Counted from the first letter of the stretch, positions 7,277 through 64,000 are shown. The stretch is DNA of 64,000 bases from Candidatus Dadabacteria bacterium (GCA_963805855.1 CAWDVW010000007.1:512001-576000), one strand, 5' to 3'. Notes: generated by a model from the sequence alone, not told the origin. A program made the numbers and translations.

Positions 7277-8020
7277 TTATGTGTATAACCCGCCATTCAC
7301 TCTTATTACCTCACCAGTTATGTAAGACGCATCATCGGACGCCAGGAACATAACTGCCTTTGCTACGTCATGCGGTTTTCCAAATCTCCCAAGCGGAATA
7401 GCCTCGATGTAAGCGTCTTTTATCTTCTGCGAAAGATCTTGCGTTATATCGGTCTCGATGAATCCAGGACTTATCGCGTTTACGGTAATATTCCTTGATG
7501 CAAGCTCTTTAGCCGTTGATTTTGTGAGCCCAATTATGCCCGCCTTGGATGCTGAGTAATTGGTTTGTCCCACGTTACCCATCTCTCCAACGATAGATGT
7601 TATGTTTATAATCCTACCGTATCTCTGTTTCACCATTATTTTTGACGCCGCTTTTGTGCAATTAAAAACGCCTTTCAAATTAACCGAGAGAACTTCGTCC
7701 CAGTCATTTTCCTTCATTCTCAGTAAAAGTCCATCCTTGGTTATCCCCGCATTGTTTACCAGAATATGTAAGCCCCCAAGCTCTTCGGCGACTTTATCGA
7801 TTTCCTCTTGAACACGAGCGAAATCAGAAACATTGAAACAACTTAGTTTACACTTTCCTCCAGAATTTACTATATTATTTGATACTTCTTCCGCTGCCGA
7901 CACGCTTCGGTGATAATTTATCACCACATAAGCACCTTGTGATGAAAGTTCAAGAGCAATCGCCCTACCAATTCCTCTGGAAGCACCGGTAATTAGAGCA
8001 ATCTTATTATCAAAAATCAT
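7277..8020 (-). CDS. fabG: 3-oxoacyl-ACP reductase
   Basis: TGASRGIG, NNAGIT, YSASK, PGFIET. Confidence 0.96.
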   Translation of the reverse strand: MIFDNKIALITGASRGIGRAIALELSSQGAYVVINYHRSVSAAEEVSNNIVNSGGKCKLSCFNVSDFARVQEEIDKVAEELGGLHILVNNAGITKDGLLLRMKENDWDEVLSVNLKGVFNCTKAASKIMVKQRYGRIINITSIVGEMGNVGQTNYSASKAGIIGLTKSTAKELASRNITVNAISPGFIETDITQDLSQKIKDAYIEAIPLGRFGKPHDVAKAVMFLASDDASYITGEVIRVNGGLYT

Positions 8021-46952: not shown

Positions 46953-47612
46953 TTACCTTGCCTCCATTAATCTAAGCCTAAGGATATTATCTTTCATGAT
47001 TTCTAGTTCTACTCTATGCTTAAGTATCAACAGGAACAAAAAAGTAAAAGCTACTAGTGTAACGAGCAATGCGACCATCATCTCCGGCGCAATACCACCG
47101 CCACCGGATCCAAATACAACCGGGGAGATTCCACGCATAACTCTCGCCGAAATGTAAACAAGCGGCAAGTCTAAAAACGCGATAATCCCAAAAACAGCGG
47201 CAAATTTTGCTTTCCTTATATCATTACCCGCAGATGAACGCAGTATCATATAAACAATGTAGAGAATCCAGAGAATAAATGTAGTAGTGAGTTGCGGATC
47301 CCAAGTCCACCAAGTCCCCCAGATGGGTTTTGCCCAAATACTACCCGATACTAGTGTAAGCGTAATAAAAACCACACCTATTTCAGCGGCAGAGTAAGCC
47401 AGGATATCCCAGTTACGACTCTCTTTTCTCAGATACTGTATACTTGCAACAAATACGATTACAAATGAAATAGTGGCGACCCAAACGGTTCCCATATGGA
47501 AATAAAAAATTTTTTGGATCGGTCCCATAACCTTCTCGGTCGGCGCGTAAATAAATGAAGCATAGAGCGAACCAATCATTGATATAAAAGTCAGAGCTAA
47601 AAGAAGATTCAT
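46953..47612 (-). CDS. ccmC: Heme exporter protein CcmC
   Basis: [30 protein letters not shown] domain. Confidence 0.93.
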
Positions 47613-49569: not shown

Positions 49570-51534
49570 ATGTTTAGCAAAGCCAAGTCTGAGAACCCCA
49601 CTCATCCAAAGAAGGCTGCTTTAATCGGAAATCCTAATGTCGGGAAAAGCTTAATTTTTGGTGCCCTTACCAAAAGATACGTTACCGTTTCAAATTATCC
49701 AGGAACAACGGTCGAGATAACCTCGGGAGAGATGAAAATCGGCTCAGAAACGATTTCTCTTATAGACACGCCCGGGGTTAATAGCCTGACGCCGACGTCG
49801 GAAGACGAAAGGGTTGTTAGAAATATTATATTCGAAGATGACATTAACTTTATAATTCAGGTTATAGATGCAAAAAACCTGGAGAGGGGTCTGTATATAA
49901 CAATTCAGGTTGCAGAAATGGGACTTCCCTTACTCATAGTTCTTAATATGATGGATGAAGCGCAACAAAGAGGAGTCGACATTAACATAGCAAATCTCTC
50001 TCATAAACTTGGGGTTCCTATCGTTCCGACTGTGGCAATCGAAAGAAAAGGAATAGAAGGAATTAAGAACGAACTTGTAAATTCGAGTATCCCTCAACTG
50101 AGAGTTCCTTACTCTCAAGCCATAGAAGGAATGTTAGCAGAAGTGAAACAAATTCTATCAAACCCTCATTTCTCAAGATTTATAGGCCTTTCTATCATAT
50201 CAGGCGACTGCAGAATGGATGAAGACATTATTAACAGAATTCCTAAAGAAAAGCTAGACTCAATTGCTGGACTTGATCCTCTCTCCAAGCTCGGCTCAAG
50301 GGAATATCCTATAAGCTATTTCATCGGTCTGAAGAGGCTTGAGCTCGCAAAAGAAATCGTTCAGAAGGTATCAACTGCCTCTTTTAAATCAGGCAACCGA
50401 ACCCTGGATCTTTTAGGACGGACATCGACTCATCCTGTATTTGGAATTCCTATATTAATTTTGATACTGTACCTCGCATATCTCTTCGTGGGAAAACTGG
50501 GGGCAGGAACATTCGTTGATTTCTTGGAGGTAACCGTCTTTGAAGGATATATAAACCCCTTTTTTAAAATAGTCATACCCAAAATTATTCCCTTCAAGAT
50601 ACTGATTGATTTTCTGGTAGGTGATTTTGGAATAATTACTATGGCGCTGACATACTCACTTGCAATCATTTTTCCGGTAATCTGCACATTTTTCATCTTT
50701 TTTAGTATCCTCGAAGATTCCGGATACCTCCCAAGGCTGGCCATTATGGTTGACAGGGTGTTTAAGTTAATGGGGCTAAATGGAAAAGTTGTACTCCCGA
50801 TGGTACTGGGGCTGGGATGTGACACAATGGCAACCCTTACCACGAGGATGCTCGAGACGAAAAAAGAAAGGCTAATTGTGATATTTCTTCTGGCTGTAGG
50901 AATCCCGTGTTCGGCCCAGCTCGCTGTGGTATTTGCTATGGCCTCTACTCTACCTCCGTGGGGTATTTTCTTTTGGGGAGTAGAAATTTGTGTTGTTCTT
51001 TTCGCAGTTGGCTTCCTCGCTTCTTACTTTGTAAAAGGAGAAAGCCGAGACCTTATTATTGAGGTTCCGCCCATAAGGATTCCACAAATCGGCAACGTAA
51101 TCGTTAAGACTATTGCGCGGCTTGAATGGTATTTGAAAGAAGCGGTCCCGCTCTTTATCTTGGGAACGATAATACTTTTTGTCTTGGATAGGCTCAAGGT
51201 TCTTGGATTTTTACAGAATCTGGCTTCACCGATCGTAGTAAAATTTCTTGACCTTCCTAAAGAGGCCACTAATGCCTTTTTAATCGGATTCCTGAGAAGA
51301 GACTATGGTGCTGCCGGCCTTTTCGATCTTCAACAGAGTGGATATTTGAGCAGCCATCAGGTTTTGGTAAGTCTTGTCACGATTACGCTATTTGTCCCCT
51401 GTGTTGCCAATTTTCTAATAATTATAAAGGAACAAGGGCTCAGAACCGCCCTTATTATAGTTGGGATAGTTCTTTTCATAGCCATTATTGTAGGAGGTAT
51501 GACGAATTGGATACTGTGGAGCCTCGGAATCTAA
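49570..51534 (+). CDS. feoB: Ferrous iron transporter FeoB
   Basis: GNPNVGKS, VSNYPGTTVE, DTPG, NMMD, LEDSGYLPR, gate cysteines (GLGC, IPCSAQ, VPCVA). Confidence 0.95.
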   Translation: MFSKAKSENPTHPKKAALIGNPNVGKSLIFGALTKRYVTVSNYPGTTVEITSGEMKIGSETISLIDTPGVNSLTPTSEDERVVRNIIFEDDINFIIQVIDAKNLERGLYITIQVAEMGLPLLIVLNMMDEAQQRGVDINIANLSHKLGVPIVPTVAIERKGIEGIKNELVNSSIPQLRVPYSQAIEGMLAEVKQILSNPHFSRFIGLSIISGDCRMDEDIINRIPKEKLDSIAGLDPLSKLGSREYPISYFIGLKRLELAKEIVQKVSTASFKSGNRTLDLLGRTSTHPVFGIPILILILYLAYLFVGKLGAGTFVDFLEVTVFEGYINPFFKIVIPKIIPFKILIDFLVGDFGIITMALTYSLAIIFPVICTFFIFFSILEDSGYLPRLAIMVDRVFKLMGLNGKVVLPMVLGLGCDTMATLTTRMLETKKERLIVIFLLAVGIPCSAQLAVVFAMASTLPPWGIFFWGVEICVVLFAVGFLASYFVKGESRDLIIEVPPIRIPQIGNVIVKTIARLEWYLKEAVPLFILGTIILFVLDRLKVLGFLQNLASPIVVKFLDLPKEATNAFLIGFLRRDYGAAGLFDLQQSGYLSSHQVLVSLVTITLFVPCVANFLIIIKEQGLRTALIIVGIVLFIAIIVGGMTNWILWSLGI

Positions 51535-51719
51535 TCTCCTGCCCGTTGTGTGGAGAGGAATTTCATAGGGAGGAGGGAACCGAAAAGTGTATAAGTTGCC
51601 CTATAAGTATAGGAGACTGCCTGTTGATCTGCTGCCCGAGATGTGGATATTCCTTCCCCCAGGAGTCAAAACTTATCCTGTGGCTAAAGAAAATCTTTAA
51701 ACCAGAGGGAAGAGCATGA
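51507..51719 (+). CDS. Small Cys-rich FeoB-associated protein
   Basis: CPLCG...CISCP...C...CCPRCGY; overlaps the feoB stop and the next start (ATGA). Confidence 0.78.
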   Translation: MDTVEPRNLISCPLCGEEFHREEGTEKCISCPISIGDCLLICCPRCGYSFPQESKLILWLKKIFKPEGRA

Positions 51720-52372
51720 AATACGATGAAGAAAGCGATGAACTGCTTGAGCTTATCTGGAAGCTCAGGGAAGAAAGCATCCAAGACGAAGAAACAATCT
51801 ACAAAAGGTCTTGGAACAAAGACGTGAAAAAAGCTATGACATGTGCTCTGGACGCGAATCTTTTAAGTAAGAGTGACGGCAAAATCAACCTTACCACAAC
51901 CGGCGAAGCGAGGGCAAAAATGATAGTCAGGCGCCACCGTCTCGCCGAGAAGCTTCTTAAAGATATACTCCGGGTAGGGTCCATTGAAATGGACTCTACA
52001 GCCTGTGAGCTTGAACATATTCTTGGTCCCGAGGTCACGGAATCTATTTGTGCTTTCCTTGGACATCCCAGGTTTTGTCCACATGGAAAACCGATTCCTC
52101 TAGGAGAATGCTGCGGAATTCTTAAAGAAGAAACTAAGGAATTTGTCGTTCCACTCGCGAAAATAATCCCCGGAGATAGGGCAAAGATAATCTTTTTGGT
52201 ACCCAGGCACCATATAAGATTGCATCAACTTACCAACCTGGGAATCATTCCCGGAGCTGAAATCGTCCTTCACCAAAAACAACCTGCATATGTATTAAGA
52301 GCAGGAGAGACAGATATTGCCATAGATGATGAAATTGCGAGACATATATACGTAAGGAAGGTTTCGACTTAG
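51716..52372 (+). CDS. DtxR/MntR-family metal-dependent regulator with a C-terminal FeoA domain
   Basis: RRHRLAE, ACELEH, LGHPRFCPHGKPIP, FeoA-like LTNLGIIPG. Confidence 0.88.
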   Translation: MKYDEESDELLELIWKLREESIQDEETIYKRSWNKDVKKAMTCALDANLLSKSDGKINLTTTGEARAKMIVRRHRLAEKLLKDILRVGSIEMDSTACELEHILGPEVTESICAFLGHPRFCPHGKPIPLGECCGILKEETKEFVVPLAKIIPGDRAKIIFLVPRHHIRLHQLTNLGIIPGAEIVLHQKQPAYVLRAGETDIAIDDEIARHIYVRKVST

Positions 52373-52466: not shown

Positions 52467-52482
52467 TGGCACATTTATTGCA
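52467..52482 (+). promoter_or_regulatory. sigma54 (-24/-12) promoter of the multiheme cytochrome cluster
   Basis: TGGCAC-ATTTA-TTGCA with exact GG-N10-GC spacing, about 125 nt upstream of ATG 52607. Confidence 0.75.
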
Positions 52483-52606
52483 CTAACTTTAAACAAAGGA
52501 GCGATTTTCCAACATAAAAATTTTAAAAACGTTGTTACCCGTGAAAAAAATACTACAAGAAAAAGAGGTGGTAATTATTTTTTCATATCGTGAAACGGAG
52601 TAAGGT

Positions 52607-53356
52607 ATGCCTCAACAGATAAAATATCTTCTCGCCCTTTCTATTGTCTTAATTCTCATTTTCCTAATTGCCCGCCATTTTCTTATGCCCGCAAGTTTTG
52701 GGCAATACGGTCATTATCGTGCCGATTCATTACAATCTGCAGTATCCAGGGAAATTAAATATGGCGGGGAAACTGCATGCAACGAATGCCATGATGATAT
52801 ATACATTTTAAAAGACAAATCATACCATCGGGGGGTTGCCTGCGAAGTATGCCATGGGCCTGCCTATGCCCATACCCAGGACCCGTATGAGTACAAACCC
52901 CCTGCACCAAGAAAACGCGCCTATTGTCCGTTGTGTCATGGATATAATCCCACAAGACCCACAGGATTCCCACAGATTGACCCTGTAAGACATAATCCCG
53001 GTAAGCCCTGCATTTTCTGCCATAATCCCCATGACCCGGTTCCTCCTGTTACGCCCCAGGAATGCGACCCATGCCACACGCAAATCGCCCGGACTAAAAT
53101 TGTCTCACCCCACGCACCCCTACCCTGTACTCGATGCCACGAAGCGAAGGAAGAGCATAAATTAAATCCAAGGATGGCTTTGCCGGATAAACCGAGGAAT
53201 AGAGAATTCTGTGGACAGTGCCACGCACAGGAGGCAGAAAGTTCCCCTGAAATTCCGCGTGTGGACATCAAAACTCATGGCAACGGTTTTTTGTGCTGGG
53301 AGTGTCACTATCCCCATTATCCTGAAGCCGGCATAAAGGAGGATGAGAAGCAATGA
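52607..53356 (+). CDS. Membrane-anchored octaheme cytochrome c (CbcS-like position)
   Basis: N-terminal TM; 8 CxxCH: CNECH, CEVCH, CPLCH, CIFCH, CDPCH, CTRCH, CGQCH, CWECH. Confidence 0.9.
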   Translation: MPQQIKYLLALSIVLILIFLIARHFLMPASFGQYGHYRADSLQSAVSREIKYGGETACNECHDDIYILKDKSYHRGVACEVCHGPAYAHTQDPYEYKPPAPRKRAYCPLCHGYNPTRPTGFPQIDPVRHNPGKPCIFCHNPHDPVPPVTPQECDPCHTQIARTKIVSPHAPLPCTRCHEAKEEHKLNPRMALPDKPRNREFCGQCHAQEAESSPEIPRVDIKTHGNGFLCWECHYPHYPEAGIKEDEKQ

Positions 53357-54165
53357 ATACTAAAGAGCTTCTTGATAACGTAACAAATAGGAGGAACTTT
53401 CTTAAAAGCCTCCTCATAATTCCCTCCGGGTTTTTTCTTGGCGGTCTTTTTTCTAAAATATTCCCCTTCTTCAAAAAGGCATCTCGTGAAAACACTTCCA
53501 CATTGGAAAGTATTTATGGGAAATACAATCCGAAGGAGCACTACTATGCGATGGGTATTGACATCGACAAGTGCATAGGGTGTGGACGATGTGTAGAGGC
53601 GTGCAAGATCGAAAATAATGTTCCTCAGGAACCCTATTTCTTCAGAACCTGGGTGGAAAGATATACTATTACAGTCGATGGAGAAACGAGTGTGGATAGT
53701 CCTGAAGGTGGAATGCATGGCTTCCCCGAGCCCGTTAGTGAGAAAGAAATCCTTCGCACCTTTTTCGTTCCAAAGTTATGTAATCAATGTGACAATCCAC
53801 CCTGTGTGCAGGTCTGTCCTGTTGGAGCCACATACCAGACAATAGATGGAGTTGTCCTTGTTGATAAAGACTACTGTATAGGATGTCGTTACTGCATTCA
53901 GGCCTGTCCTTATGGAGCGAGATATCTCAATCCTGAGACTAAGACGGCGGACAAATGCACATTTTGTTATCACAGAATCGTAAAGGGATTGCAGCCTGCT
54001 TGCGTAGAGGTATGTCCCACTGGAGCAAGAACTTTTGGAGAAGTAAAACCACGCAACAATCCCCTTGCGCGATTTGTCCGATTCAACAATATTGGTGTCT
54101 TAAAGCCCTATCTTAACACAGAACCCAAGGTCTACTATGCTAATCTAGACAAGGAGGTTACCTAG
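53353..54165 (+). CDS. Tat-exported 4x[4Fe-4S] ferredoxin subunit (NrfC/DmsB family, CbcT-like)
   Basis: NRRNFLK Tat motif; CIGCGRCVEAC, CNQCDNPPCVQVCP, CIGCRYCIQACP, CTFC...CVEVCP. Confidence 0.92.
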   Translation: MNTKELLDNVTNRRNFLKSLLIIPSGFFLGGLFSKIFPFFKKASRENTSTLESIYGKYNPKEHYYAMGIDIDKCIGCGRCVEACKIENNVPQEPYFFRTWVERYTITVDGETSVDSPEGGMHGFPEPVSEKEILRTFFVPKLCNQCDNPPCVQVCPVGATYQTIDGVVLVDKDYCIGCRYCIQACPYGARYLNPETKTADKCTFCYHRIVKGLQPACVEVCPTGARTFGEVKPRNNPLARFVRFNNIGVLKPYLNTEPKVYYANLDKEVT

Positions 54166-55368
54166 TTGGATCCCTTACTTGAGAGACTTGCCATTTCCCT
54201 TAAAGAAGTTACAGGCTTCATCTATCCCAATGAGATTGAGCTCCATTGGAGCATCCTAATTGTTGTTTATCCCTATCTTACGGGTCTTGTAGCAGGGGCT
54301 TTTATTCTGGCTTCACTGGAAAGGGTTTTTAATGTTAAAGAGGTAGAGCCTACTTACCGGCTTTCTCTTCTCACTGCGCTTGCTTTCCTTATTGTCGCGC
54401 CTCTTCCTCTTGTGGCTCATCTAGGACATCCCGAACGGGCCTATGAAATTTTCCTCACACCCAATTTCAAGTCTGCTATGGCTATGTTTGGCTTTGTATA
54501 TGGCTGGTATCTATTAGTTGTTCTTCTCGTGGAATTGTGGTTTGAGTACAGGAAGGATATCGTTGTCTGGTCTAACAAAGAAAGAGGGTTGAAAAGGTTT
54601 ATTTATCTCATCTTAACCCTTGGGGCTTCAGACCTTTCAGAAAGATCTCTTCAGTTTGACAGAAAGGCTGCAAAATTTATAACCATCATAGGCATTCCAT
54701 CCGCTTTCCTCCTTCATGGTTATGTGGGTTTTATCTTCGGCTCTGTGAAGGCGAACCCCTGGTGGAGCAGTGTGCTTATGCCAGTAGTTTTTTTGTTTTC
54801 CGCTATAGTATCGGGGATCGCGCTTGTGATGTTACTCTACATGGTTATTACTCTCTTTCGACGAAAAAGTGTGGATATGGCCTGTATGGATAAGCTCGCT
54901 TCCTTTTTGCTCTATGCAATGATACTGGACTTCTCACTGGAAAACCTTGACTTCATTCACCGCATTTACGAATCAGAAGAATCCATAAAAATACTGTACC
55001 AGCTTTTAATCAGCAAGCTATTCATCAGTATGGTTGTGATTCAGATGCTGTTAGGAACTATAATTCCAATGGTCTTATTGGCATGGACAAAGTTGACGCG
55101 CCTTCCTGATGAGTTAAGGCGTCTTATCTACTTTGGGAGCGCAATTCTTACCCTGATAGGAATTTTTAGTATAAGATGGAATGTGGTTATCGGGGGGCAA
55201 TTATTTTCCAAGAGCTTAAGAGGGCTTACAACGTACAAAATGGAATTGCTCGGAATTGAAGGACTCTTGGTGGCGTTATTCTTTCTAACGCTCCCATTTA
55301 TTATTCTGTACATCCTCGTTGCTCTGTTGCCGCCATGGAAGGAAGCAGAGGTTAAAATTGAAACGTAG
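54166..55368 (+). CDS. NrfD/PsrC-family quinol-interacting membrane subunit (CbcU-like)
   Basis: WSILIVVYPYLTGLVAG, HLGHPER, LHGYVGF, RWNVVIGGQ; TTG start with AAGGAGG RBS. Confidence 0.9.
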   Translation: MDPLLERLAISLKEVTGFIYPNEIELHWSILIVVYPYLTGLVAGAFILASLERVFNVKEVEPTYRLSLLTALAFLIVAPLPLVAHLGHPERAYEIFLTPNFKSAMAMFGFVYGWYLLVVLLVELWFEYRKDIVVWSNKERGLKRFIYLILTLGASDLSERSLQFDRKAAKFITIIGIPSAFLLHGYVGFIFGSVKANPWWSSVLMPVVFLFSAIVSGIALVMLLYMVITLFRRKSVDMACMDKLASFLLYAMILDFSLENLDFIHRIYESEESIKILYQLLISKLFISMVVIQMLLGTIIPMVLLAWTKLTRLPDELRRLIYFGSAILTLIGIFSIRWNVVIGGQLFSKSLRGLTTYKMELLGIEGLLVALFFLTLPFIILYILVALLPPWKEAEVKIET

Positions 55369-55575
55369 AAGTTTTTCAGTTAGGGGCTATAGGAAGCTAA
55401 AGATATATCTGAAAAGTGTGACTTAAAAATCCGTTTGATTTCGTAACGAAATGAAAGGATTCAGGTGAAAAAACATGTATAAATTTCCCGCACGTCTTGG
55501 TTTGATGGTCAAAGATACCGGTTGCACCAAGCTATTAGCTGTATGTTAAAGAAAAGGCAACATGTGATACAAGTT

Positions 55576-57582
55576 ATGCGATCAAATGAGCGATTGTTTC
55601 TCTTAACTCTTTTCTTTTTAATTTTTTGTCCCTTCACAGTTACTTCCGGTTCTGATGAGCTTAAAAGTGAAGACTGCCTTATATGTCACGAGACGATGGA
55701 GCCCTTGGTTGATAAAGGACTCTTAGATGCCTCAATCCATAGTGGTTTCGAGTGCACAGATTGTCATCAGGACGTAACACAGATACCCCACGAAGAAGTC
55801 CCGAAGAAGGTTGATTGCTCTTCATGTCACCCAGAGATTGCGAAAGAATACTCTGAAAGTATACATGGTGAAGCAATAGCGAGGGGTGATCGCGATGCCC
55901 CAATTTGTACGAGTTGTCACGGCTCACACGGCATTCTTCCAAAGAATAACCCTAAATCTCATATAAACCCCTTGAATATTCCTGCGACATGTTCAAATTG
56001 CCATACAAGTGAAAAGATTACAAAGCAGCACCCACTCCCGTCACCGGAATTTATTGAGAGTTACAGTAAAAGTGTTCACGGCCGTGGCGTCCTTGTCAGT
56101 GGGCTAGTTGTCTCCGCGGTTTGTTCCGACTGCCATGGTGCGCATAATATAAAGCCCAAAAGTGACAAAAACTCCGGTGTCTATAGGGCAAATATACCGC
56201 TAACCTGTAAGAAGTGCCATCTTGGAATCTATGATGACTATGAGAGGAGCATCCATGGACAGCTCTGGAAAGAAGGTTTCGAAGCGGGACCAGTGTGTAC
56301 GACATGCCACAAATCCCATCAGATCACAGAGCCTGTGTCAGCTGGATTCAGGCTTCAGATATCTGAGGAGTGTAGTGGATGCCATGAGGCCAGAGCACTT
56401 ACCTATCGGGACACATTCCACGGGCAGTCAACGTCTCTAGGGTTTGTTCAGGTCGCAAAATGCTCAGATTGCCATACCCCTCACCTAAATCTTCCAGAAG
56501 AAAACCCACTTTCATCAGTCTATTCCGGAAATCTCATCGACACTTGCGGCAAATGTCACTCCAATATAAATAAGAAATTTATCACCTATGACCCACATGC
56601 CGATCCTCACGATAAGGATAGATCTCCTCTGCTTTATTACGTAAATACCCTCATGAATTGGCTTCTCATTTCAGTTTTTGGCTTTTTTGGCTTACATCTG
56701 GTTCTTTGGCTTCAGCGCTCAGCCGTAGCAGTAGCAAGGGGCGAGATTCCCACCCACTGGAGCGGCGACAAGTATGTTCGCCGGTTTAGCCTTCCCCACA
56801 GGATTACGCACGTTACTCTTGTCATAAGCTTCCTAGGACTTGCTGCTACGGGACTTCCACTCATGTATAATTACACGGCGTGGGGAAAAATTCTCGAAGG
56901 AATTCTAGGCGGCGTTGAGGTTACAAGGTACTTCCATAGATTCTTTGCAATAGTGACATTGGGTTACATTAGTTTTCATCTCGGTTATATGCTAGACAAG
57001 ATATTTTTAAAGGGCAACATAAGCCTTCTCTATGGTCCTAATTCTATGATTCCTAGGAGTGAAGACATTGTGGATCTCTACAAGAACATAAGGTGGTTCT
57101 TATACTTAGGTCCCCGTCCGAAACTGGACAGATGGACATATTGGGAGAAGTTCGATTATTTTGCGGTTTTCTGGGGAATACCGGTGATAGGCTTCTCCGG
57201 ACTTATGCTCTGGTTTCCCGAGGTCTTTACAAAGATTCTTCCTGGCTACTTTCTAAATGTGGCAATGATAGTCCACGGAGAGGAAGCCCTTCTTGCAGTT
57301 GGATTCATATTCACATTCCATTTCTTCCACACCCATCTCCGACCTGAGAGTTTTCCGTTAGACACTGTCATTTTTACCGGCAAAATACCTCTGGAAAGAT
57401 TTATCGAGGAAAGACCCGAAGAATACAATAGGCTACTCAAAGAGGGAAGGCTTGAAGAAATCATTGTTGAACCGCCATCACAACTTGCTATCATGTTCTC
57501 TAAGTGGTTTGGTTTTGCTGCACTAGGCGTAGGATTGATCTTGATCATCGCGATCTTTGCGACCTTCCTTGCTAATATTTAG
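55576..57582 (+). CDS. CbcL-like fused multiheme cytochrome c / FdnI-HydC-type cytochrome b
   Basis: Signal peptide from ATG 55576 (track start 55522), 11 CxxCH, then a TM domain with RRFSLPHRITH, FHRF, WTYWEKFDYFAVFWG, HGEEALLA, HFFHTH. Confidence 0.88.
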   Translation: MRSNERLFLLTLFFLIFCPFTVTSGSDELKSEDCLICHETMEPLVDKGLLDASIHSGFECTDCHQDVTQIPHEEVPKKVDCSSCHPEIAKEYSESIHGEAIARGDRDAPICTSCHGSHGILPKNNPKSHINPLNIPATCSNCHTSEKITKQHPLPSPEFIESYSKSVHGRGVLVSGLVVSAVCSDCHGAHNIKPKSDKNSGVYRANIPLTCKKCHLGIYDDYERSIHGQLWKEGFEAGPVCTTCHKSHQITEPVSAGFRLQISEECSGCHEARALTYRDTFHGQSTSLGFVQVAKCSDCHTPHLNLPEENPLSSVYSGNLIDTCGKCHSNINKKFITYDPHADPHDKDRSPLLYYVNTLMNWLLISVFGFFGLHLVLWLQRSAVAVARGEIPTHWSGDKYVRRFSLPHRITHVTLVISFLGLAATGLPLMYNYTAWGKILEGILGGVEVTRYFHRFFAIVTLGYISFHLGYMLDKIFLKGNISLLYGPNSMIPRSEDIVDLYKNIRWFLYLGPRPKLDRWTYWEKFDYFAVFWGIPVIGFSGLMLWFPEVFTKILPGYFLNVAMIVHGEEALLAVGFIFTFHFFHTHLRPESFPLDTVIFTGKIPLERFIEERPEEYNRLLKEGRLEEIIVEPPSQLAIMFSKWFGFAALGVGLILIIAIFATFLANI

Positions 57583-57730
57583 AGCCTCTTCGAGAGACGG
57601 AGTTATACTAAATGTTGATAATTAATTTAGAAAACAAAGCACAGTCTTCGATATAAACATAAACTTGAAACGCGGGTATATTTTTGGTGAGACTACTGAT
57701 GAATCTTAGATCCACAAGGGAGAAGTTCAC

Positions 57731-59239
57731 ATGAGATTACCTAGGCTTGTCCACAATTGGTTAAGCTATGCCGGTGCGGCTATAGCGGCTCTGTCGCTAA
57801 TTCTTTTTATCTTCCTATTTGCCCTTCACTCAATCGTTGATACCTCAGGAGTGCCGTACGCCGGGCTGATCATCTTCGTACTTGTTCCGATGATTTTTGT
57901 TTTCGGTATGATACTCATCCCGATCGGCATGTTGCTGGAGTGGCGCCTCTGGAGAACCAAGCGTATAAGATCATTACCGCGGTTTCCTATAATCGACTTA
58001 AACAACCCAAACCAACGGAATGCGACATTCATCTTTTTAGTGGGCTCAATCCTGCTCATACTTCTTGTTACTGTTAGTGGTTACAAAGCCTATCATGTGA
58101 CTGATTCGGTCGCCTTCTGCGGCACGCTTTGCCACAGCGTGATGCAACCCGAGTACACCGCTTATCAGAATTCGCCCCATGCAAGGGTCCGCTGCGTCGA
58201 CTGCCATGTGGGACCAGGGGCGGACTGGTTTGTCAAATCCAAAATGTCAGGACTATACCAGGTTTACGCGGTTCTCCTTAACAAATACCCGAGGCCTATT
58301 CCGGTCCCAATCGAGAGCTTACGCCCTGCCCAGGAAACATGTGAGCAGTGTCACTGGCCCGAGCAATTTTTTGGGGCCCAACAAAAAAGGCTGATCCATT
58401 TTTTGCCTGACGAGAATAATACTCGTTGGGATATTAATCTGCTTATCAAAATCGGTGGGGGCAGCCCTGAGACCGGGCTGACCGAAGGAATCCACTGGCA
58501 CATGAACATTGCCAATCGGGTTGAATATATCGCCACGGATGAGATCCGACAGGAGATTCCCTGGGTAAGAATGACGAATTTGGAAACTGGAGAGGCTATC
58601 GAGTACATGTCAACCGAAAATCCACTTTCAGAGGAAGAAATCGGCAATGCACATATACGGAAGATGGACTGCATGGATTGCCACAACCGACCCACGCACA
58701 TTTTCCGTTCCCCTAGCTACTCGATGAATCTCGCTTTAGGCACCGGCAAGATAGATCCTACGTTGCCCTTCATTAAACAAACCGGCGTCAAACTGCTGTC
58801 TGGAAATTATGACTCCACGGAATTGGCGCTTGGGGAAATTGAGAGTGGGGTCAAAAAATTCTACCGGGACGGAAATTCTGACTTGACAAATCACAAAGAA
58901 GATTTGATTTCCGGTGCAATAGTGGGGATCCAGGACATTTATCAGAACAACTTTTTCCCTGATATAATGAAGGTGCGGTGGGACGTCTACCCGAATAACG
59001 TCGGTCACCTGAATTCCCCTGGGTGCTTTCGCTGTCACGATGGACTTCACAAGACTGCAGACGGAAAGATGATCACGACTAAGTGTACTGCCTGCCATAC
59101 TATCATATCACAGGGAACACCAGAGAATATGGAGTATTCAATGGAACCAGACGGGCTTGCTTTTCGGCATCCCGAGGATATCGGAGAGATGTGGAAGGAG
59201 ATAAAGTGTAGCGACTGCCACACCGGCCAACTGCCATGA
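57731..59239 (+). CDS. ImcH-like NapC/NirT-family heptaheme inner-membrane cytochrome c
   Basis: 3 N-terminal TMs; CGTLCHSVM (CX3CH) plus 6 CxxCH (CVDCH, CEQCH, CMDCH, CFRCH, CTACH, CSDCH); YQNSPHARV, LRPAQETC, GIHWHM. Confidence 0.87.
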   Translation: MRLPRLVHNWLSYAGAAIAALSLILFIFLFALHSIVDTSGVPYAGLIIFVLVPMIFVFGMILIPIGMLLEWRLWRTKRIRSLPRFPIIDLNNPNQRNATFIFLVGSILLILLVTVSGYKAYHVTDSVAFCGTLCHSVMQPEYTAYQNSPHARVRCVDCHVGPGADWFVKSKMSGLYQVYAVLLNKYPRPIPVPIESLRPAQETCEQCHWPEQFFGAQQKRLIHFLPDENNTRWDINLLIKIGGGSPETGLTEGIHWHMNIANRVEYIATDEIRQEIPWVRMTNLETGEAIEYMSTENPLSEEEIGNAHIRKMDCMDCHNRPTHIFRSPSYSMNLALGTGKIDPTLPFIKQTGVKLLSGNYDSTELALGEIESGVKKFYRDGNSDLTNHKEDLISGAIVGIQDIYQNNFFPDIMKVRWDVYPNNVGHLNSPGCFRCHDGLHKTADGKMITTKCTACHTIISQGTPENMEYSMEPDGLAFRHPEDIGEMWKEIKCSDCHTGQLP

Positions 59240-59309
59240 ATCGACTCAGTCAATCGAATTAGGGTCTCGACAAAAACAACGGACTGAGGTTGTAAGGGCT
59301 TGATCACTC

Positions 59310-59969
59310 TTAGGGTGTTATCTCTATTAATCCCTTTCGAATGGCAAATTTTATGAGGTCGGTTCGGGTGTGAATATTAAGCTTTTCCATTATGTGTGTT
59401 CGATGGCCCATCACAGTTTTAACACTCATGTAAAGCATATCAGCGATCTCATTGTTCTTATAGCCCTCTGCAACAAGCTTTAGCACCTGTTTTTCTCTAT
59501 TAGTGAGGCTTTCGTAAGGGTCTTCTTCAATATCTTTATCCTTTCCTTGCAGGTACCCCTCTATCACAACAGGAGCGACCTCGGGATGCAAAAACGTACT
59601 GCCTCTCATCGCTGCTTGAATCGCGGATATAAGCTCTGTACTCGTTGCTTTTTTAAGGACATAGCCAGAAGCACCTGCTTTTAAGAACCTGTATATATAT
59701 TCTTTATTATCATACTGGGTAAGGACAATGATTTTTGTCTTAGGGCAGGCATTTCGTATCTCCAGAGTGGCTTCGAGCCCACCTAGGCCAGGCATAGCGA
59801 TATCCATTAGCACCACATCCGGCTTGACCTTTCGGGCTTTTTCTATAGCTTCCCTACCATCTGTGGCATCGCCCACGACGTCAATGTCTCCGCAACCCTC
59901 TAGAAGCGCCCTTATGCCTTCACGTATAAGGGCATGGTCGTCGGCGATAAGCACCTTTATATTACTGAT
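59310..59969 (-). CDS. NarL/LuxR-family response regulator; likely start is ATC at 59969 (track start is GTG at 59954)
   Basis: IKVLIADDH, VLMDIAMP, GASGYVLK, LTNREKQVL...SVKTV..HR HTH. Confidence 0.92.
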   Translation of the reverse strand: MSNIKVLIADDHALIREGIRALLEGCGDIDVVGDATDGREAIEKARKVKPDVVLMDIAMPGLGGLEATLEIRNACPKTKIIVLTQYDNKEYIYRFLKAGASGYVLKKATSTELISAIQAAMRGSTFLHPEVAPVVIEGYLQGKDKDIEEDPYESLTNREKQVLKLVAEGYKNNEIADMLYMSVKTVMGHRTHIMEKLNIHTRTDLIKFAIRKGLIEITP

Positions 59970-59970
59970 T

Positions 59971-61827
59971 TTAGCTAACCTCCCTTAATGGAACCGTAAC
60001 TACAACCCTTGTCCCAGATCCGGGTTGTGACTGTACTTCAAGCTTTCCATCCAGAAGTAAGACCCGTTCCTTCATTCCGAGAAGCCCAAGCCCCCGGCTA
60101 CCCGACTCTGTACTTGATATACTCCCCAAATCAAATCCAATGCCATCGTCTTCAATCTCTAAACTAATGAAACTATCTTCAATCTCCAGATTAATAATAA
60201 CATTTTCCGCTTGAGAGTGCTTGGCTATATTCGTTATAGCCTCTTGAGCAACCCTAAATAGCACGGTTTCGATCTGGGTCTGAAATCTTTTTTCAAACAG
60301 ATCTCCTTCGTAGCGGAAATTAATGCCCAAGGGCTTGAGGCGTTCTTCTGCATACCACTTTATAGCAGCAGGAAGCCCGAGGTCATCAAGGATAGCAGGA
60401 CGGAGGTCAAAAATCATGCGGTGTGTGCTATCTATAGCACGAAGTGCGAGTTTCCTTGCATTATCTATTTTCACCTCAAGCAACTTAGGTGCGCTCGCCT
60501 CTCTTATTGCTTCGAGGGAAATGAGCATTGCAGCAAGAGTTTGGCTCATTTCATCGTGTAACTCCCTTGCAATTCTCTTCCGTTCTTCTTCCTGGGCTGA
60601 GATTATCCTACGGAGGAGTTCTCCTCGCTTCTCCTCCTTCTTCCTGAGTTCCTCATACAGAGAAAGGGTTTCTTTTGTTCTCTTATCCACCCTCCTCTCA
60701 AGTTCTCCTGTCCAGGCAGCGATTTCGTCCCGGGAATCCTTGAGCTTAATCCTCATTTCATCCAGGGTTTTGCCAAGTTGCCCGATTTCATCGTCTCCGG
60801 ATATAGAAATAGGCTCAAAGAGATTGCCAGAAGCAATTCTCCGGGCAGACATTGTTAAAGATTTAACCGGTGCAATAACGCTCTGAGCTACCCCTAGGGT
60901 TAGAATTAGAGTGACTACAAACAATACGGCGCCAAACGTAAAAAAGCGCCTTTTCATACTCTCCACAGGAGCAAGGGCTTCCCTCTCAGACTGTCTGATA
61001 TCGATTCCCCAAGGGATCTCGGAGAGAGGAGCAAAAGCCATGATCTCTTTTTTTGGCTCATCCTTTACGGCCTTCTCGTGGCAGTTGTGGCATGTTCCTA
61101 CGCTGGGCTGGCCCGTCTTGATAAGTCCTGAAAGAGTTCCGCCATGGTCACTCTCCGTTAGGATGTTTTCCGGTTTCGTAGAGGCTAAAACAAACCCGTT
61201 TCCGTCTACTATTTCGATATACCCTGTCTCCCCAATCTTTACTGGACGGATAACCCTAGCCAATGCAGGTCCGGTAGGGTCAATTTCCCCTCCTACGACA
61301 CCCAATGTTCTTCCATTCTTAACCATAGGGATCAGAGCGAATACCGCCTTTTTTGCTTGAGGCCTTATCTCGAATAAATTAGAAACGATAGGCTTCCCCG
61401 TGAGAATAGACTCTCTAACAGGGGGAAAACCCCCGAAATTTGATTCGGCAAGGGCTGGACGAGGAGGTTCTATCCACAAGAGATGCCCTCTACCGTCAAG
61501 CAAAAACACGTTGGCGAAAATTGACCGCAATAATGCATTGTGAAGAGCGGCTTTCTCCGCTGCCAGGTCTTCGTCTGCCAGATTGACGCCCTTGGAGAAA
61601 GCAACTTCTTGAAGATACATAAGATTCTGCCTGATTAAATCCTCGAGATTGCTCGCAACTGTTTGGGCAAGCACGAGCCGCTCTCGAAGCATTTGGTTGA
61701 CACTGTCGCGCATACTCAAAAAATCCGAGACACCAAGTATTGCTAGTATGGTCAGCACACCAGAGGCGCTGAGTAAGATTATTCTTCTTCGCAGGCTGGG
61801 TCTTTCAAAAAAGGATCTTAAGCCCAT
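59971..61827 (-). CDS. HisKA_3 sensor histidine kinase with a Cache-like periplasmic domain containing CxxCH, plus HAMP
   Basis: Two TMs with CHNCH between them, HAMP (DEIGQLG), ERKRIARELHD, QEAITNIAKHS, DDGIGF, GLGLLGMKER. Confidence 0.92.
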   Translation of the reverse strand: MGLRSFFERPSLRRRIILLSASGVLTILAILGVSDFLSMRDSVNQMLRERLVLAQTVASNLEDLIRQNLMYLQEVAFSKGVNLADEDLAAEKAALHNALLRSIFANVFLLDGRGHLLWIEPPRPALAESNFGGFPPVRESILTGKPIVSNLFEIRPQAKKAVFALIPMVKNGRTLGVVGGEIDPTGPALARVIRPVKIGETGYIEIVDGNGFVLASTKPENILTESDHGGTLSGLIKTGQPSVGTCHNCHEKAVKDEPKKEIMAFAPLSEIPWGIDIRQSEREALAPVESMKRRFFTFGAVLFVVTLILTLGVAQSVIAPVKSLTMSARRIASGNLFEPISISGDDEIGQLGKTLDEMRIKLKDSRDEIAAWTGELERRVDKRTKETLSLYEELRKKEEKRGELLRRIISAQEEERKRIARELHDEMSQTLAAMLISLEAIREASAPKLLEVKIDNARKLALRAIDSTHRMIFDLRPAILDDLGLPAAIKWYAEERLKPLGINFRYEGDLFEKRFQTQIETVLFRVAQEAITNIAKHSQAENVIINLEIEDSFISLEIEDDGIGFDLGSISSTESGSRGLGLLGMKERVLLLDGKLEVQSQPGSGTRVVVTVPLREVS

Positions 61828-61828
61828 C

Positions 61829-62389
61829 TCAATCGTGAATGCTCCTTGCTATTTTAAGTAAATCCTCAACCGACCCGTTAGATCTTAAGACTATCTTTCT
61901 ATCCCCTTGTCTCCAGCTTAGCTGTGTCCACCGGCTTCCTTTCTCCACTACACCGAGTTCTAGCGTCCCTTTCGCTCCACCGACCGAGACTTGAATCTCT
62001 TCGGAATCTCTATTGGGTTCCATTAAATCGACTCCCAACCCTTTGCTTTCATCTGTGTTTGAAATAATTTCGTAAATTACCAAGCTAGGCCTACCATCTC
62101 CTTGTGAAATGAATACCAGTGTTATAATGAGGGAGGGCTTTCTTACCACCCTGATTTCTTCAGGCGGCCAGATGAGATAATCTGGGAAGTATGAGGGAAG
62201 AAATATTTTTAATCCAAGTGAAAATTCAGCTTCTTCTACGCTACTGTAAAATTTGTGTTCGCTTTCCTTTATATATGCGGGGACTTTTTTCAAAATGTAT
62301 AGTGATATCAATACCACACACATCAAGATAGTGATAGATAACACTATTTTCGACATTTCTCTTAAAAAGTAAGTAGCTTTTCCAGTCAT
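61829..62389 (-). CDS. Hypothetical single-TM protein with a periplasmic domain
   Basis: N-terminal TM; YSSVEEAE...LPSYFP and LSW...L.IARS resemble DUF4367-like anti-sigma periplasmic folds; stop lies 1 nt before the kinase start. Confidence 0.7.
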   Translation of the reverse strand: MTGKATYFLREMSKIVLSITILMCVVLISLYILKKVPAYIKESEHKFYSSVEEAEFSLGLKIFLPSYFPDYLIWPPEEIRVVRKPSLIITLVFISQGDGRPSLVIYEIISNTDESKGLGVDLMEPNRDSEEIQVSVGGAKGTLELGVVEKGSRWTQLSWRQGDRKIVLRSNGSVEDLLKIARSIHD

Positions 62390-62437
62390 AACTTTAGGCC
62401 GTTTGCCTTAATTCAAATTGTGAGAGCATCTTAGCGC

Positions 62438-63460
62438 TCATACGACAAAGAATAGCAGCACAATTAGCGAAAAAGCTGTTATACCGAGTCGAATATTTGG
62501 ATACGGAGGTTTATAGATATTCTTTGGGCGTACCAACCTTGTTACTCTGTTCTCGATTCGTACCCTGTGCGAGTGACTCTCAATATTATGAGCTATTGAT
62601 AAGATTCTACCTCTAAAGCCGGACTTTGATATTTGAGAAGACCCACCTGCTTTACCCATCCGAAAAATTTTTACTAAGCTTGAAGCGATAGCAAGCGGCT
62701 TCCCGGTAAACGTTGAAGCAAGATCATCGCAGAGTGTCTCTCGTTCATTTATGATTCTTCGAAATTCAACAAGGACAACCGGATTATAAAACATGATGAA
62801 TCGAAAAGTGAATAATACCCAACCTGTGGCGTTATCCTTTCTCAATACGTGACCCATCTCATGGGCAAGCACCCCTTGTAGCTCTTCAAGGTCGAGAGCC
62901 TCTATGAGAGAATAGGAGATGTTGATGGAACCGTTCGTCAGCCCTTTTGCATATATTATAGGCTCTTTCCCGTTTAATAGGAAAATCCTTGGCACAGCCA
63001 TAGGTAACCTTTGCTCCAGATCTCTTATGACTCCATCAAGTTTAGGAATTGTACCACTCCTATAAAGGGTCTTATCGTCCTCTCCAGCATAGTGATGAAT
63101 TAGTGTCGGAATAGCTTCTTGTACAACAAAAATAAGGGTCACAACTCCCAATAGGACAAGAGCTAAATGCCAAACCAAAATGCCGTCAACCAATCTTAAA
63201 AGTAGCCATTGGTTTATATCGAAGATAGCCATATCTTCACGGAACTCCGAGCTTCCGCGATGAGGATAGATCAGTTGATACAGAGGGAAAGATAAAACCG
63301 GAATCAGTATTACGAGACTACGAAACCTGATTTGTAGGAGCGGACGCTCTTCATGCCATATTTTTAATAATACTTCAATAACAAGGGCTATGATAAAAGA
63401 ATGCAGTACACACTGAAACACATATTGACTAAAACTAAATTCCAAAAAATCCATTTCCAT
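62438..63460 (-). CDS. M56 (BlaR1/MecR1-like) membrane metallopeptidase
   Basis: TM segments, LAHEMGH (HExxH), FYNP, ERETLCDD. Confidence 0.85.
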   Translation of the reverse strand: MEMDFLEFSFSQYVFQCVLHSFIIALVIEVLLKIWHEERPLLQIRFRSLVILIPVLSFPLYQLIYPHRGSSEFREDMAIFDINQWLLLRLVDGILVWHLALVLLGVVTLIFVVQEAIPTLIHHYAGEDDKTLYRSGTIPKLDGVIRDLEQRLPMAVPRIFLLNGKEPIIYAKGLTNGSINISYSLIEALDLEELQGVLAHEMGHVLRKDNATGWVLFTFRFIMFYNPVVLVEFRRIINERETLCDDLASTFTGKPLAIASSLVKIFRMGKAGGSSQISKSGFRGRILSIAHNIESHSHRVRIENRVTRLVRPKNIYKPPYPNIRLGITAFSLIVLLFFVV

Positions 63461-63517
63461 ATTCTATCAATAGACCACCTAAATACCATTTGCCCCAATG
63501 AATATCCACTGAATTTA

Positions 63518-64000
63518 TTATACATTATCCCCTTTTTCGTCCCCAGCAAGTTCTTTATTCTCTTCATTCTTAGTCCAGGATTTAATAACCTCTGCGTATT
63601 CTAAAGGGTGATCTTTTTCCATTCTCTCTCGTGAAATCTTTCCAGTGAATATACTCGGGTCGAATGGAAATACATCGGGGTTAAAATGTGCTCCATACAT
63701 ATGCCAGATAATTATGACGAGAAAGGCAAGCAGAGCCTCATAACCGTGGACAGTTTCCGCTACAGGTATGATCACTCCCGGTAAGAATTTTGTAAAAAAG
63801 ATCGGAAAGTAGAGGACAAAGCCTGAAACGATCATAAACATCCCGCCGAGTACAAGTCCCCAATATTCAAACTTTTGCCTAAAATCGTAGCGACCGAATT
63901 TAGGGTGCTCCTCGGAAAGCCCCATGTAGTATCTAAGCATTCCCACGGCATCGTTGAAATCCTTAAATGTTGGGATTATCGAAGGTCGTACCTTTCTCAG
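63518..64000 (-). CDS. FdnI-type cytochrome b (CbcB-like), C-terminal part; runs off the window edge
   Basis: Open to the window end; RYDFRQKFEYWG, HGYEALLA, WHMY, HFNPDVFP, HPLEY. Confidence 0.85.
   Translation of the reverse strand: MRKVRPSIIPTFKDFNDAVGMLRYYMGLSEEHPKFGRYDFRQKFEYWGLVLGGMFMIVSGFVLYFPIFFTKFLPGVIIPVAETVHGYEALLAFLVIIIWHMYGAHFNPDVFPFDPSIFTGKISRERMEKDHPLEYAEVIKSWTKNEENKELAGDEKGDNV

Follow-up and report, generated by a model that had tools for sequence, protein, structure and literature searches.

The question raised by this locus is whether an organism that is not a Geobacter has brought together, in one place, several of the inner-membrane quinol-oxidising complexes familiar from Geobacter, and what such an assembly would be for. 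The DNA analysed, referred to below as the window, is a stretch of 64,000 nucleotides on contig C7 of a genome labelled Candidatus Dadabacteria bacterium (GCA_963805855.1, CAWDVW010000007.1:512001-576000), and the subject is a run of multiheme cytochrome genes that occupies its right-hand end from position 52,467 and continues past it. The reading favoured here, with a probability of roughly 0.6, is that the window holds the left half of an approximately 38-kb respiratory island for outward electron transfer in an uncultured host of coastal wetland sediment. Genes, heme motifs and Pfam and NCBIfam families were surveyed across the window, then across the contig past the window end and the whole 3.11-Mb genome. 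Comparisons with Geobacter used a fragmented metagenome-assembled genome (MAG) labelled Oryzomonas sp. (Geobacteraceae), standing in for G. sulfurreducens, and distribution was counted over 41 related genomes (G-numbers, including G011, G012, G015, G016 and G020), among which G011 belongs to the host's genus and G015, 97% complete, to its family.

Five co-oriented open reading frames (ORFs), encoding an octaheme cytochrome, an Fe-S protein exported by twin-arginine translocation (Tat), an NrfD-family subunit, a fusion of an 11-heme c domain with cytochrome b, and a heptaheme protein with three transmembrane (TM) helices, all lie where a preliminary description of the sequence had placed them (Table 1), and its count of 26 heme-c motifs across this cassette was reproduced when the single CX3CH motif is included. 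The cassette opens a pronounced concentration of such genes: ORFs of at least 60 aa with at least three CXXCH motifs number 14 in the genome, and 11 of them lie within C7:564,607-602,779, a segment that starts at window position 52,607 and is far richer in multihemes than chance would give.

The 502-aa product of the last cassette gene has TM helices (hydrophobic segments) at residues 14-32, 45-63 and 98-116, CGTLCH at residue 130 and CXXCH at 155, 204, 314, 432, 452 and 493, and all seven motifs are invariant in 17 aligned homologues. It is 48% identical over 501 aa to an Oryzomonas protein of 503 aa with one CGTLCH and six CXXCH motifs, the two being reciprocal best hits. In its published definition (Zhong & Shi 2018, PMC6295460) the ImcH family has three N-terminal TM helices, a CX3CH motif beside the membrane domain and six CXXCH motifs, members of the Geobacter group measuring 495-519 aa; the same source gives identities of 31.5-49% between the Geobacter group and other members. 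Every published family feature (length, three helices, CX3CH with six CXXCH, relation to Geobacter-group ImcH) was found in the window protein, and the name ImcH-like can be kept. The family is very large, all 8000 of the 8000 scored candidates passing an E-value of 0.001.

The gene directly before it encodes a 686-aa protein that is, again as reciprocal best hit, 36% identical over 655 aa (E 3e-115) to a 624-aa Oryzomonas protein with nine CXXCH motifs and a cytochrome b domain. The two b domains align helix for helix, the sixth included, a plain hydropathy scan at its threshold detecting four of the six in the window protein, and five b-heme His positions are conserved in a four-way alignment that includes it; in CbcL, helices 1-3 are described as bearing one such His apiece and helix 5 as bearing two (Joshi 2021). 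In a tree built by a quick method from 66 b domains and an outgroup, both proteins fall in one clade of 29 members with a Shimodaira-Hasegawa-like approximate likelihood ratio (SH-aLRT) support of 100. Members of the CbcL/MtrH/MtoC family have 3-23 CXXCH motifs in front of a C-terminal diheme b domain, in most cases of six TM helices, and the identity reported between CbcL and MtoC/MtrH is about the same as the 36% seen here (PMC6295460). With the fusion architecture, the His pattern and the grouping with Geobacter-type CbcL all present, the CbcL-like assignment of the preliminary description was borne out. In G020 the corresponding gene is read in two frames (435 aa and 242 aa, C17:10652-12597, L113), with the break inside the b domain.

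The first three genes resemble the Cbc4 (CbcSTU) module, for which the Oryzomonas reference is a 1.6-kb contig with genes for a 4-heme and an Fe-S protein and the beginning of one for NrfD. The 270-aa Fe-S protein is the reciprocal best hit of its Oryzomonas counterpart (45% over 272 aa, 246 bits), and the NrfD subunit is 54-72% identical over its first approximately 50 residues, which is all that the end of the reference contig leaves. The two halves of the octaheme protein are 33% identical over 87 aa (E 3e-13) with four heme motifs each in register, suggesting a tandem duplicate of a CbcS-like tetraheme unit; they match the Oryzomonas 4-heme protein at 35% and 28%, and the octaheme is that protein's only match in this genome. 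CbcS has been described as a membrane-anchored tetraheme with CbcT as its Fe-S donor, the role of Cbc4 being given as unknown in the review concerned, whose available text reports no defect in Fe(III) or Mn(IV) reduction for CbcS (PMC13591261). The window protein is membrane-anchored as well, yet an octaheme rather than a tetraheme, and the order of c, Fe-S and NrfD subunits is that of CbcS-CbcT-CbcU, so that CbcSTU-like also proved an apt label. The NrfD subunit is 92-98% identical in G011, G012, G016 and G020, a conservation between genera far above that of the neighbouring cytochromes (74-87%) or of polynucleotide phosphorylase (PNPase, 70%).

Facing the cassette is a convergent minus-strand operon with an FdnI-type cytochrome b, as had been described. 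The preliminary description had counted four Geobacter-type routes in all; the ImcH-, CbcL- and CbcSTU-like routes stand, and the one it named CbcB-like, after this cytochrome b, does not. The 264-aa b gene ends at C7:576,312, 312 nt past the window, and is preceded by genes for a 9-heme cytochrome c and for a 174-aa unknown protein. CbcA is a seven-heme c-type protein whose C-terminal TM helix gives a b-heme His, and CbcB is a four-helix diheme b protein described, in the available text, as having no sequence similarity to CbcL (Joshi 2021); the reference pair was an Oryzomonas 382-aa seven-heme protein encoded directly before a 215-aa PF01292 protein. The window's b protein has four helices, yet it matches the b domain of Oryzomonas CbcL (35% identity, E 5e-24), its similarity to the CbcB-like protein reaching E 0.12 only, and the Oryzomonas CbcB-like query gave no match at 1e-4 in this genome, where just two ORFs, the 686-aa fusion and the 264-aa protein, pass the PF01292 cut-off. 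CbcB identity was therefore rejected. The C-terminal helix of the 9-heme partner aligns with TM1 of CbcL and the b protein with TM2-5, His positions kept; because of this alignment and the match to the CbcL b domain, the pair is taken as a split member of the CbcL superfamily. The 9-heme partner, with nine hemes and a His-bearing C-terminal helix, has generic similarity to the Oryzomonas 7-heme (CbcA-like) protein. By BLAST scores the CbcL clade and a second clade, made up of 11-13-heme fusions, lie at about the same distance from the pair, which is predicted to be a third lineage of the superfamily, its placement relative to clades I and II being uncertain in the quick tree, which gave a long-branch warning on the split cytochrome b. 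The family of stand-alone b subunits to which the 264-aa protein belongs is large (2337 of 3331 candidates at E <= 1e-10). The divergent sigma-54 regulator BccR has no equivalent in this operon, which has a NarL-type regulator and a kinase; the CXXCH motif inside the periplasmic dCache domain of that kinase suggests a heme-c redox sensor. The kinase gene is co-transcribed with an M56-type protease gene and the split module. A mis-annotation is thereby corrected: a stand-alone FdnI-type cytochrome b beside a multiheme c protein is not necessarily CbcB.

Proteins of these kinds also serve as ordinary periplasmic anchors, and the modules might be an NrfH-like anchor for a nitrite or other reductase and an Fe-S/NrfD complex for a sulfur or tetrathionate type of enzyme, their clustering with a conduit being incidental. 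The best NCBIfam hits do point that way (NrfH 73.7, TtrB 219.6, DsrO 177.7 and NrfD 56.6 bits), and NrfH is the only sequence match of the 502-aa protein in the PDB, where the cassette proteins found only weak NrfH and 'cytochrome c' matches. However, the hits to NrfH, TtrB, DsrO, NrfC and NrfD all lie below the curated cut-offs (134.2 bits for NrfH), no NCBIfam model reaches its cut-off for any of the five plus-strand proteins, and the CX3CH motif and three TM helices specific to ImcH are present. The preliminary description would have been overturned had the proteins grouped with NrfH/NapC partners of a nitrite or nitrate reductase instead of with ImcH/CbcL; NrfA, NapA and NarG are all missing from the genome. 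Hits to PF02335 are only fragments inside other multihemes (73 and 53 of 438 profile positions), and molybdopterin proteins are limited to ActB and a 533-aa ORF. The latter is presumably NuoG-like. Among 14 control genomes, PF03264 matches occurred only in E. coli and B. thetaiotaomicron. Since no reductase for a soluble substrate is encoded, and since the modules keep company across families and phyla as set out below, a role as reductase anchors is regarded as improbable.

The preliminary description had made outward transfer depend on an outer-surface electron conduit elsewhere in the genome, and a porin-cytochrome cluster was found 23 kb past the window end. Its operon encodes two MtrC domain II/IV-like pentahemes, a 433-aa barrel protein and 7-heme and 4-heme proteins, with lipoboxes on the first MtrC-like pentaheme and on a separately encoded 10-heme protein. 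The AlphaFold model of the 433-aa protein, made with 37 homologues, is all-beta with 24 predicted strand segments (predicted local distance difference test, pLDDT, 80.9; predicted template modelling score, pTM, 0.70), and Foldseek returned porins and usher pores as its top matches (E ~1e-10). The protein belongs to no Pfam family, forms a small family of 107 clusters and gave no match to the MtrB and PioB models. A predicted barrel of approximately 23 strands is thus encoded with periplasmic 7- and 4-heme proteins and a lipobox-bearing MtrC-like surface protein, an arrangement of the kind already noted in 'Ca. Dadabacteria', as porin-cytochrome operons, by the authors of FeGenie (PMC7005843). 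The contig between the window and the conduit carries a Rieske/cytochrome b operon with two pentahemes and an NtrC-type sigma-54 regulator with its kinase, the latter inside the island, as are several class-I monoheme cytochromes c. The ten-heme lipoprotein gene has a sigma-54-like element 116 nt upstream, and its product is 72% identical in G011. Just past the conduit operon lies a transposase of the insertion sequence family IS110 (L003:11289-12518 (+) = C7:605,289-606,518), within a stretch of approximately 5.5 kb that is also missing from the collinear region of G015.

Comparison with relatives shows how far this block behaves as a unit. G015 is collinear with the window from approximately 18,000 to 47,612 and then, within approximately 1.5 kb, enters the conduit operon; because it is collinear on both sides without the block, the segment from approximately 47.7 to approximately 85.8 kb (window-equivalent) is an insertion/deletion (indel) of approximately 38 kb relative to this same-family genome, in keeping with the term island used in the preliminary description. 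In G011, G012, G016 and G020, representing three genera, the gene order is kept and the five plus-strand proteins are 74-98% identical; in G016 the conduit, Rieske complex, split module, ImcH gene, CbcL-type gene and NrfD module are contiguous, and in the stretch of G020 the convergent split-module operon was not seen. Across the 41 genomes, full-length ImcH-type proteins occur in six (with four more weak partial hits), full-length CbcL-type proteins in five (that of G020 in two frames, with two additional hits that are weaker or of another kind) and NrfD orthologues of at least 92% identity in five (two further genomes having only paralogues at 32-36%). The Cbc4-, CbcL- and ImcH-like genes co-occur in the same five genomes, all of which have the barrel, and the barrel is found in 13. 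Recent transfer of the cassette was considered and is not supported: its proteins share 74-93% identity with their G016 counterparts, the figure for PNPase being 70%, and it lies approximately 30 kb from pnp in G000, G011 and G016 alike, a constant distance with which old residence followed by losses fits at least as well as recent transfer.

The same data bear on whether the co-location has any functional meaning, since independent cytochromes might simply have accumulated in a variable region. That the block is an indel, that an IS110 transposase stands just past the conduit and that distribution in the family is patchy would all suit such an accumulation. It is nevertheless very improbable given the same order in four relatives of three genera, the joint presence or absence of the three modules in the 41 genomes, the shared sigma-54 motifs described below, and the recurrence of all four module types together in more distant loci, namely L059 (Bacteroidota) and L068 and L072 (Verrucomicrobiota).

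These distant loci were found by scanning species-representative genomes with aligned ImcH-like proteins, a search that gave at least 591 confirmed ImcH-type loci; the best 80 (42-54% identity), from many phyla and including the Oryzomonas MAG, were named and inspected, and being the top scorers of one pattern search they are a non-random sample. In 38 of these 80 the ImcH-type gene has a CbcL-type b gene at a distance of no more than 3 kb, as it does in 29 of the 47 with at least 3 kb on both sides; a b gene is found anywhere in the locus in 44 of the 80, and close relatives of the NrfD module (at least 40%) are present too in five. The rarity of side-by-side modules implied by the preliminary description therefore did not hold, ImcH/CbcL adjacency being usual outside Geobacter, and as clustering is common there the locus is solid but fairly ordinary. 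The ImcH and CbcL homologues of Desulfuromonas acetexigens have consecutive accessions and are both expressed on electrodes (PMC12133095, 2025, ISME J), from which the two genes appear to be adjacent in that species as well; an explicit statement of imcH/cbcL adjacency was not found in the literature, and Figure 7 of PMC6295460 may show it.

A second tie between the parts of the island is a shared promoter motif. The consensus of sigma-54 promoters is TGGCAC-N5-TTGC at -24/-12, and an exact match stands 126 nt before the octaheme gene (Table 1). Exact sites number 19 genome-wide, of which four fall in the 45-kb island against 0.27 expected, and rpoN is present. Exact or one-mismatch elements also precede the Rieske operon, hemA, the ten-heme gene and the conduit operon (the last with two exact copies), and an exact-core site between dtxR and the octaheme gene is found in all four cassette-bearing relatives (G011, G012, G016 and G020); none was found in the G015 stretch. 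Hits exceed expectation in the window (6 against 2.22, a count reached in 1 of 100 shuffles) and in the two contig stretches that follow, L002 (5 against 0.94, reached in 0 of 200 shuffles) and L003 (4 against 0.69, reached in 1 of 200). The distribution of these motifs suggests that the first operon and the four other units of the island named above form one regulon, which would be switched by the island's own NtrC-type regulator. An exact consensus at L002:12812-12826 (+), conserved in G011, ends 4 nt before the annotated hemA start; the true start is probably further downstream, and heme synthesis may be co-regulated with the cytochromes. Predicted sigma-70 promoters (14 against 12.9 in shuffles) and terminators (9 against 6.6) between 52300 and 59400 were no more frequent than in shuffled sequence to any useful degree, so no operon boundaries were drawn from them.

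From these observations we infer a direction of electron flow, potential tiers, partners and a mode of regulation. Four inner-membrane quinol:cytochrome c modules, namely the octaheme/Fe-S/NrfD complex, the 11-heme c and b fusion, the ImcH-type heptaheme and the split 9-heme c with four-helix b, would oxidise menaquinol, whichever suits the potential of the acceptor being used; futalosine-pathway genes in the genome point to menaquinone. The ImcH-type module would release protons on the periplasmic side, as was shown for the electroneutral ImcH of Geobacter, and the b-type modules would place two b hemes across the membrane, b-type modules having been proposed to oxidise quinol on the cytoplasmic side and thereby to help with lower-potential acceptors (Pimenta 2023 preprint). 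From there, periplasmic multihemes would receive the electrons and hand them through the barrel to the surface decahemes; in the absence of oxygen the final acceptors would be Fe(III), Mn(IV) or others outside the cell. The potential windows reported for Geobacter (ImcH above -0.1 V, CbcL from -0.1 to -0.21 V and CbcBA below -0.21 V; PMC13591261) could be carried over to the island modules by analogy only.

Several observations weigh against outward transfer as just outlined. Eight of the 13 genomes with the barrel are without the three inner-membrane modules, so the conduit does not depend on them. The surface decaheme is a single 738-aa ORF in G011 (L118:3659-5875) and is split here, by either a real frameshift or an assembly error, and the heme census of the genome turned up no small triheme carrier of the PpcA type. 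The sigma-54 sites are consensus matches and hence putative promoters, the genes of the Oryzomonas MAG were named from published heme counts and architectures rather than from annotation, and no RNA runs containing window 52467-59307 were listed. The genome encodes two A-type heme-copper oxidases (aa3), as does the whole order in the sample, and an alternative complex III (ACIII), so the host is not an obligate metal reducer. Finally, the CbcL/MtrH/MtoC family is found in Fe(II) oxidisers as well as reducers (PMC6295460), which bears on the direction of flow.

With an oxygen-respiring host and a family that also operates in oxidisers, the last two points make the inward flow of electrons the main rival. 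The conduit would admit electrons drawn from Fe(II), from reduced minerals or from partner cells; one branch would run downhill, through the Rieske/b complex or ACIII, to the aa3 oxidases, and another uphill, through the CbcL/MtoC-type modules, into the quinone pool. The Rieske/b complex next to the conduit and the class-I monoheme cytochromes of the island would fit this route. On the other hand, ImcH homologues are reported only from reducers in the available text of PMC6295460, and the iron genes beside the cassette (FeoB and the DtxR/FeoA fusion) fit the handling of produced Fe(II) at least as well as lithotrophy. Inward flow is considered unlikely, and outward transfer remains the preferred reading.

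A bolder extension of outward transfer, held tentatively and with more doubt than belief, is that the lineage already owned a conduit, to which the 38-kb block is added as a self-contained 'plug-in' that sigma-54 switches and that is acquired or shed whole, letting an aerobic bacterium of a streamlined lineage switch to mineral respiration. If so, the block would bring four menaquinol oxidases of different build together with a Rieske/b complex, a surface decaheme and added capacity for heme synthesis; the compact form in G016 (approximately 27 kb contiguous) would be a natural, complete and portable pathway of electron export from inner membrane to outer membrane; and the split c and b pair under a heme-c sensor kinase would be a functional counterpart of the inducible, low-potential CbcBA drawn from another lineage of the CbcL superfamily. 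The wider interest lies in prediction, as the poor conservation of most multiheme cytochromes makes mineral or electrode respiration hard to foresee in uncultured bacteria; ImcH- and CbcL-type proteins belong to the small set of markers that are conserved, and here they occur in an oxygen-respiring, non-Geobacter coastal lineage, tied physically and by promoter motifs to an outer-membrane conduit. G015 without the block and G016 and G020 with it offer a natural with/without comparison. The protein families were already known from the literature and the value of the work is incremental; what is new is the 38-kb indel, the conserved predicted sigma-54 promoters with an NtrC-type regulator of their own, the Rieske/b complex, the adjoining conduit and the oxygen-respiring host.

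PNPase bears out the preliminary view that the host is no Geobacter: identity is 95% within its own genus, 56% to the Oryzomonas MAG and 50-57% across a set of ten named genomes from different phyla that includes this MAG. Close homologues of the island proteins are labelled Thermodesulfobacteriota (NCBI), and more distant ones 'Ca. Dadabacteria' and Binatia. Eight DNA metagenomes, from salt marsh, mangrove, marsh and soil, contain at least half of the words of 52467-59307. The ACIII operon looks complete (L117:4543-11765, C7:54,543-61,765) and encodes a pentaheme ActA, a 991-aa ActB, an NrfD-type ActC, ActD, a monoheme protein and a 417-aa protein. Outside the island region of the contig there are only three multihemes, among them an 804-aa protein (L116:5748-8162 (+) = C5:783,748-786,162) with eight CXXCH motifs, HEAT/TPR repeats and a CcmH/CycH-like TPR region.

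Table 1. Features of the island and its left flank; plain numbers are window positions, and C7, L002 and L003 positions refer to the contig and to stretches of it past the window end.
Feature	Position	Strand	Size and evidence
ccmF	44358-46358		left of cassette
ccmC-like gene	46953-47612		left of cassette
FeoB ferrous-iron transporter	49570-51534	+	Pfam FeoB_N E 4e-55; near left edge of 38-kb variable block
DtxR-type iron-dependent repressor fused to FeoA domain	51716-52372	+	Fe_dep_repr_C E 3e-25, FeoA E 6e-11
Putative sigma-54 type -24/-12 element TGGCACATTTATTGC	52467-52481	+	exact TGGCAC-N5-TTGC match
Membrane-anchored octaheme cytochrome c	52607-53356	+	249 aa; 8 CXXCH; one N-terminal TM helix
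Tat-exported four-cluster-type Fe-S subunit, CbcT-like	53353-54165	+	270 aa; RRNFL twin-arginine motif; 4Fe-4S dicluster domains; Fer4_11 E 2e-28
NrfD-family integral membrane quinol-interacting subunit, CbcU-like	54166-55368	+	400 aa; Pfam NrfD E 2e-43; 8 hydrophobic segments
CbcL-type 11-heme c domain and six-helix diheme cytochrome b fusion	55522-57582	+	686 aa; 11 CXXCH; C-terminal PF01292; FdnI-type hits
ImcH-type heptaheme menaquinol dehydrogenase, NapC/NirT/NrfH superfamily	57731-59239	+	502 aa
NarL/LuxR-type response regulator	59310-59954	-	last gene of convergent operon; Response_reg E 1e-28, GerE E 2e-19; syntenic in G011, G012, G016
Sensor histidine kinase dCache-HAMP-HisKA_3	59971-61827	-	Pfam; CHNCH at residue 246 between TM helices 16-34 and 295-313
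Membrane-anchored protein	61829-62389	-	186 aa; one N-terminal TM helix; sub-threshold DUF4367 only; conserved in G011, G012, G016
M56/M48-type membrane metalloprotease, BlaR1-like sensor-protease fold	62438-63460	-	Peptidase_M56 E 6e-11, Peptidase_M48 E 1e-8
Four-helix diheme cytochrome b, 3' part in window	63518-64000	-	264 aa in full; PF01292 E 2e-16 (full protein)
9-heme cytochrome c, C-terminal TM helix	C7:576,341-577,411		356 aa; directly upstream of 264-aa b gene
hemA	L002:12830-14158		annotated GTG start
Ten-heme lipoprotein	L002:15099-17585 = C7:590,099-592,585	+	828 aa; lipobox IISC then run of 12 glycines
MtrC-like pentaheme ORFs	L003:6616-8779 = C7:600,616-602,779	-	405 aa and 324 aa; overlap in different frames, junction near 7562-7590

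The genes on the left flank agree with the preliminary description, which had reported iron uptake and heme attachment beside the cassette: FeoB, the DtxR/FeoA fusion, ccmF and the ccmC-like gene are all present. FeoB is syntenic with the cassette in G011, G012, G016 and G020; the collinear stretch of G015 yielded none. A fused tetrapyrrole methylase/HemD (uroporphyrinogen-III synthase) at 39975-41504 (+), between the cytochrome-maturation genes and a major facilitator superfamily (MFS) transporter, adds to the concentration of heme-related genes around the island.

Set beside the systems that have been characterised, the island combines familiar parts in a different arrangement. ImcH of G. 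sulfurreducens is GSU3259, reportedly described by Levar in 2014; the window protein shares its NapC/NirT/NrfH-like first hemes, the CX3CH motif directly after helix 3 and a length in the Geobacter range. It differs in being encoded last in a five-gene string behind a putative sigma-54 element, directly after a CbcL-type gene, whereas the imcH-like gene of the Oryzomonas MAG stands alone between unrelated ORFs, and in having an oxygen respirer as its host. CbcL, reportedly characterised by Zacharoff in 2016 and encoded by what we take to be GSU0274, likewise joins an N-terminal multiheme c domain to a six-helix diheme b domain with five conserved His; here, however, there are 11 hemes rather than nine and the gene is a neighbour of imcH. 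The Cbc4/CbcSTU complex, of which CbcS is said to have been characterised by Fernandes in 2026, has the same succession of anchored multiheme c, Fe-S protein and NrfD-type membrane subunit, the cytochrome of the window differing in consisting of two tetraheme repeats. With CbcBA (GSU0593-0594) the likeness is in architecture only, a separate c-type protein with a His-bearing C-terminal helix followed by a four-helix diheme b protein, placed in both cases in a regulated operon, and the differences are nine hemes against seven and a NarL-type two-component system with an M56 protease against the divergent BccR. The conduit departs from the Pcc/Ext systems of Geobacter and from MtrCAB of Shewanella in its order (C-like, barrel, 7-heme) and in a barrel outside any Pfam family, and resembles them in that one operon encodes small periplasmic multihemes, a large predicted outer-membrane barrel and a lipoprotein whose two pentaheme halves are MtrC domain II/IV-like.

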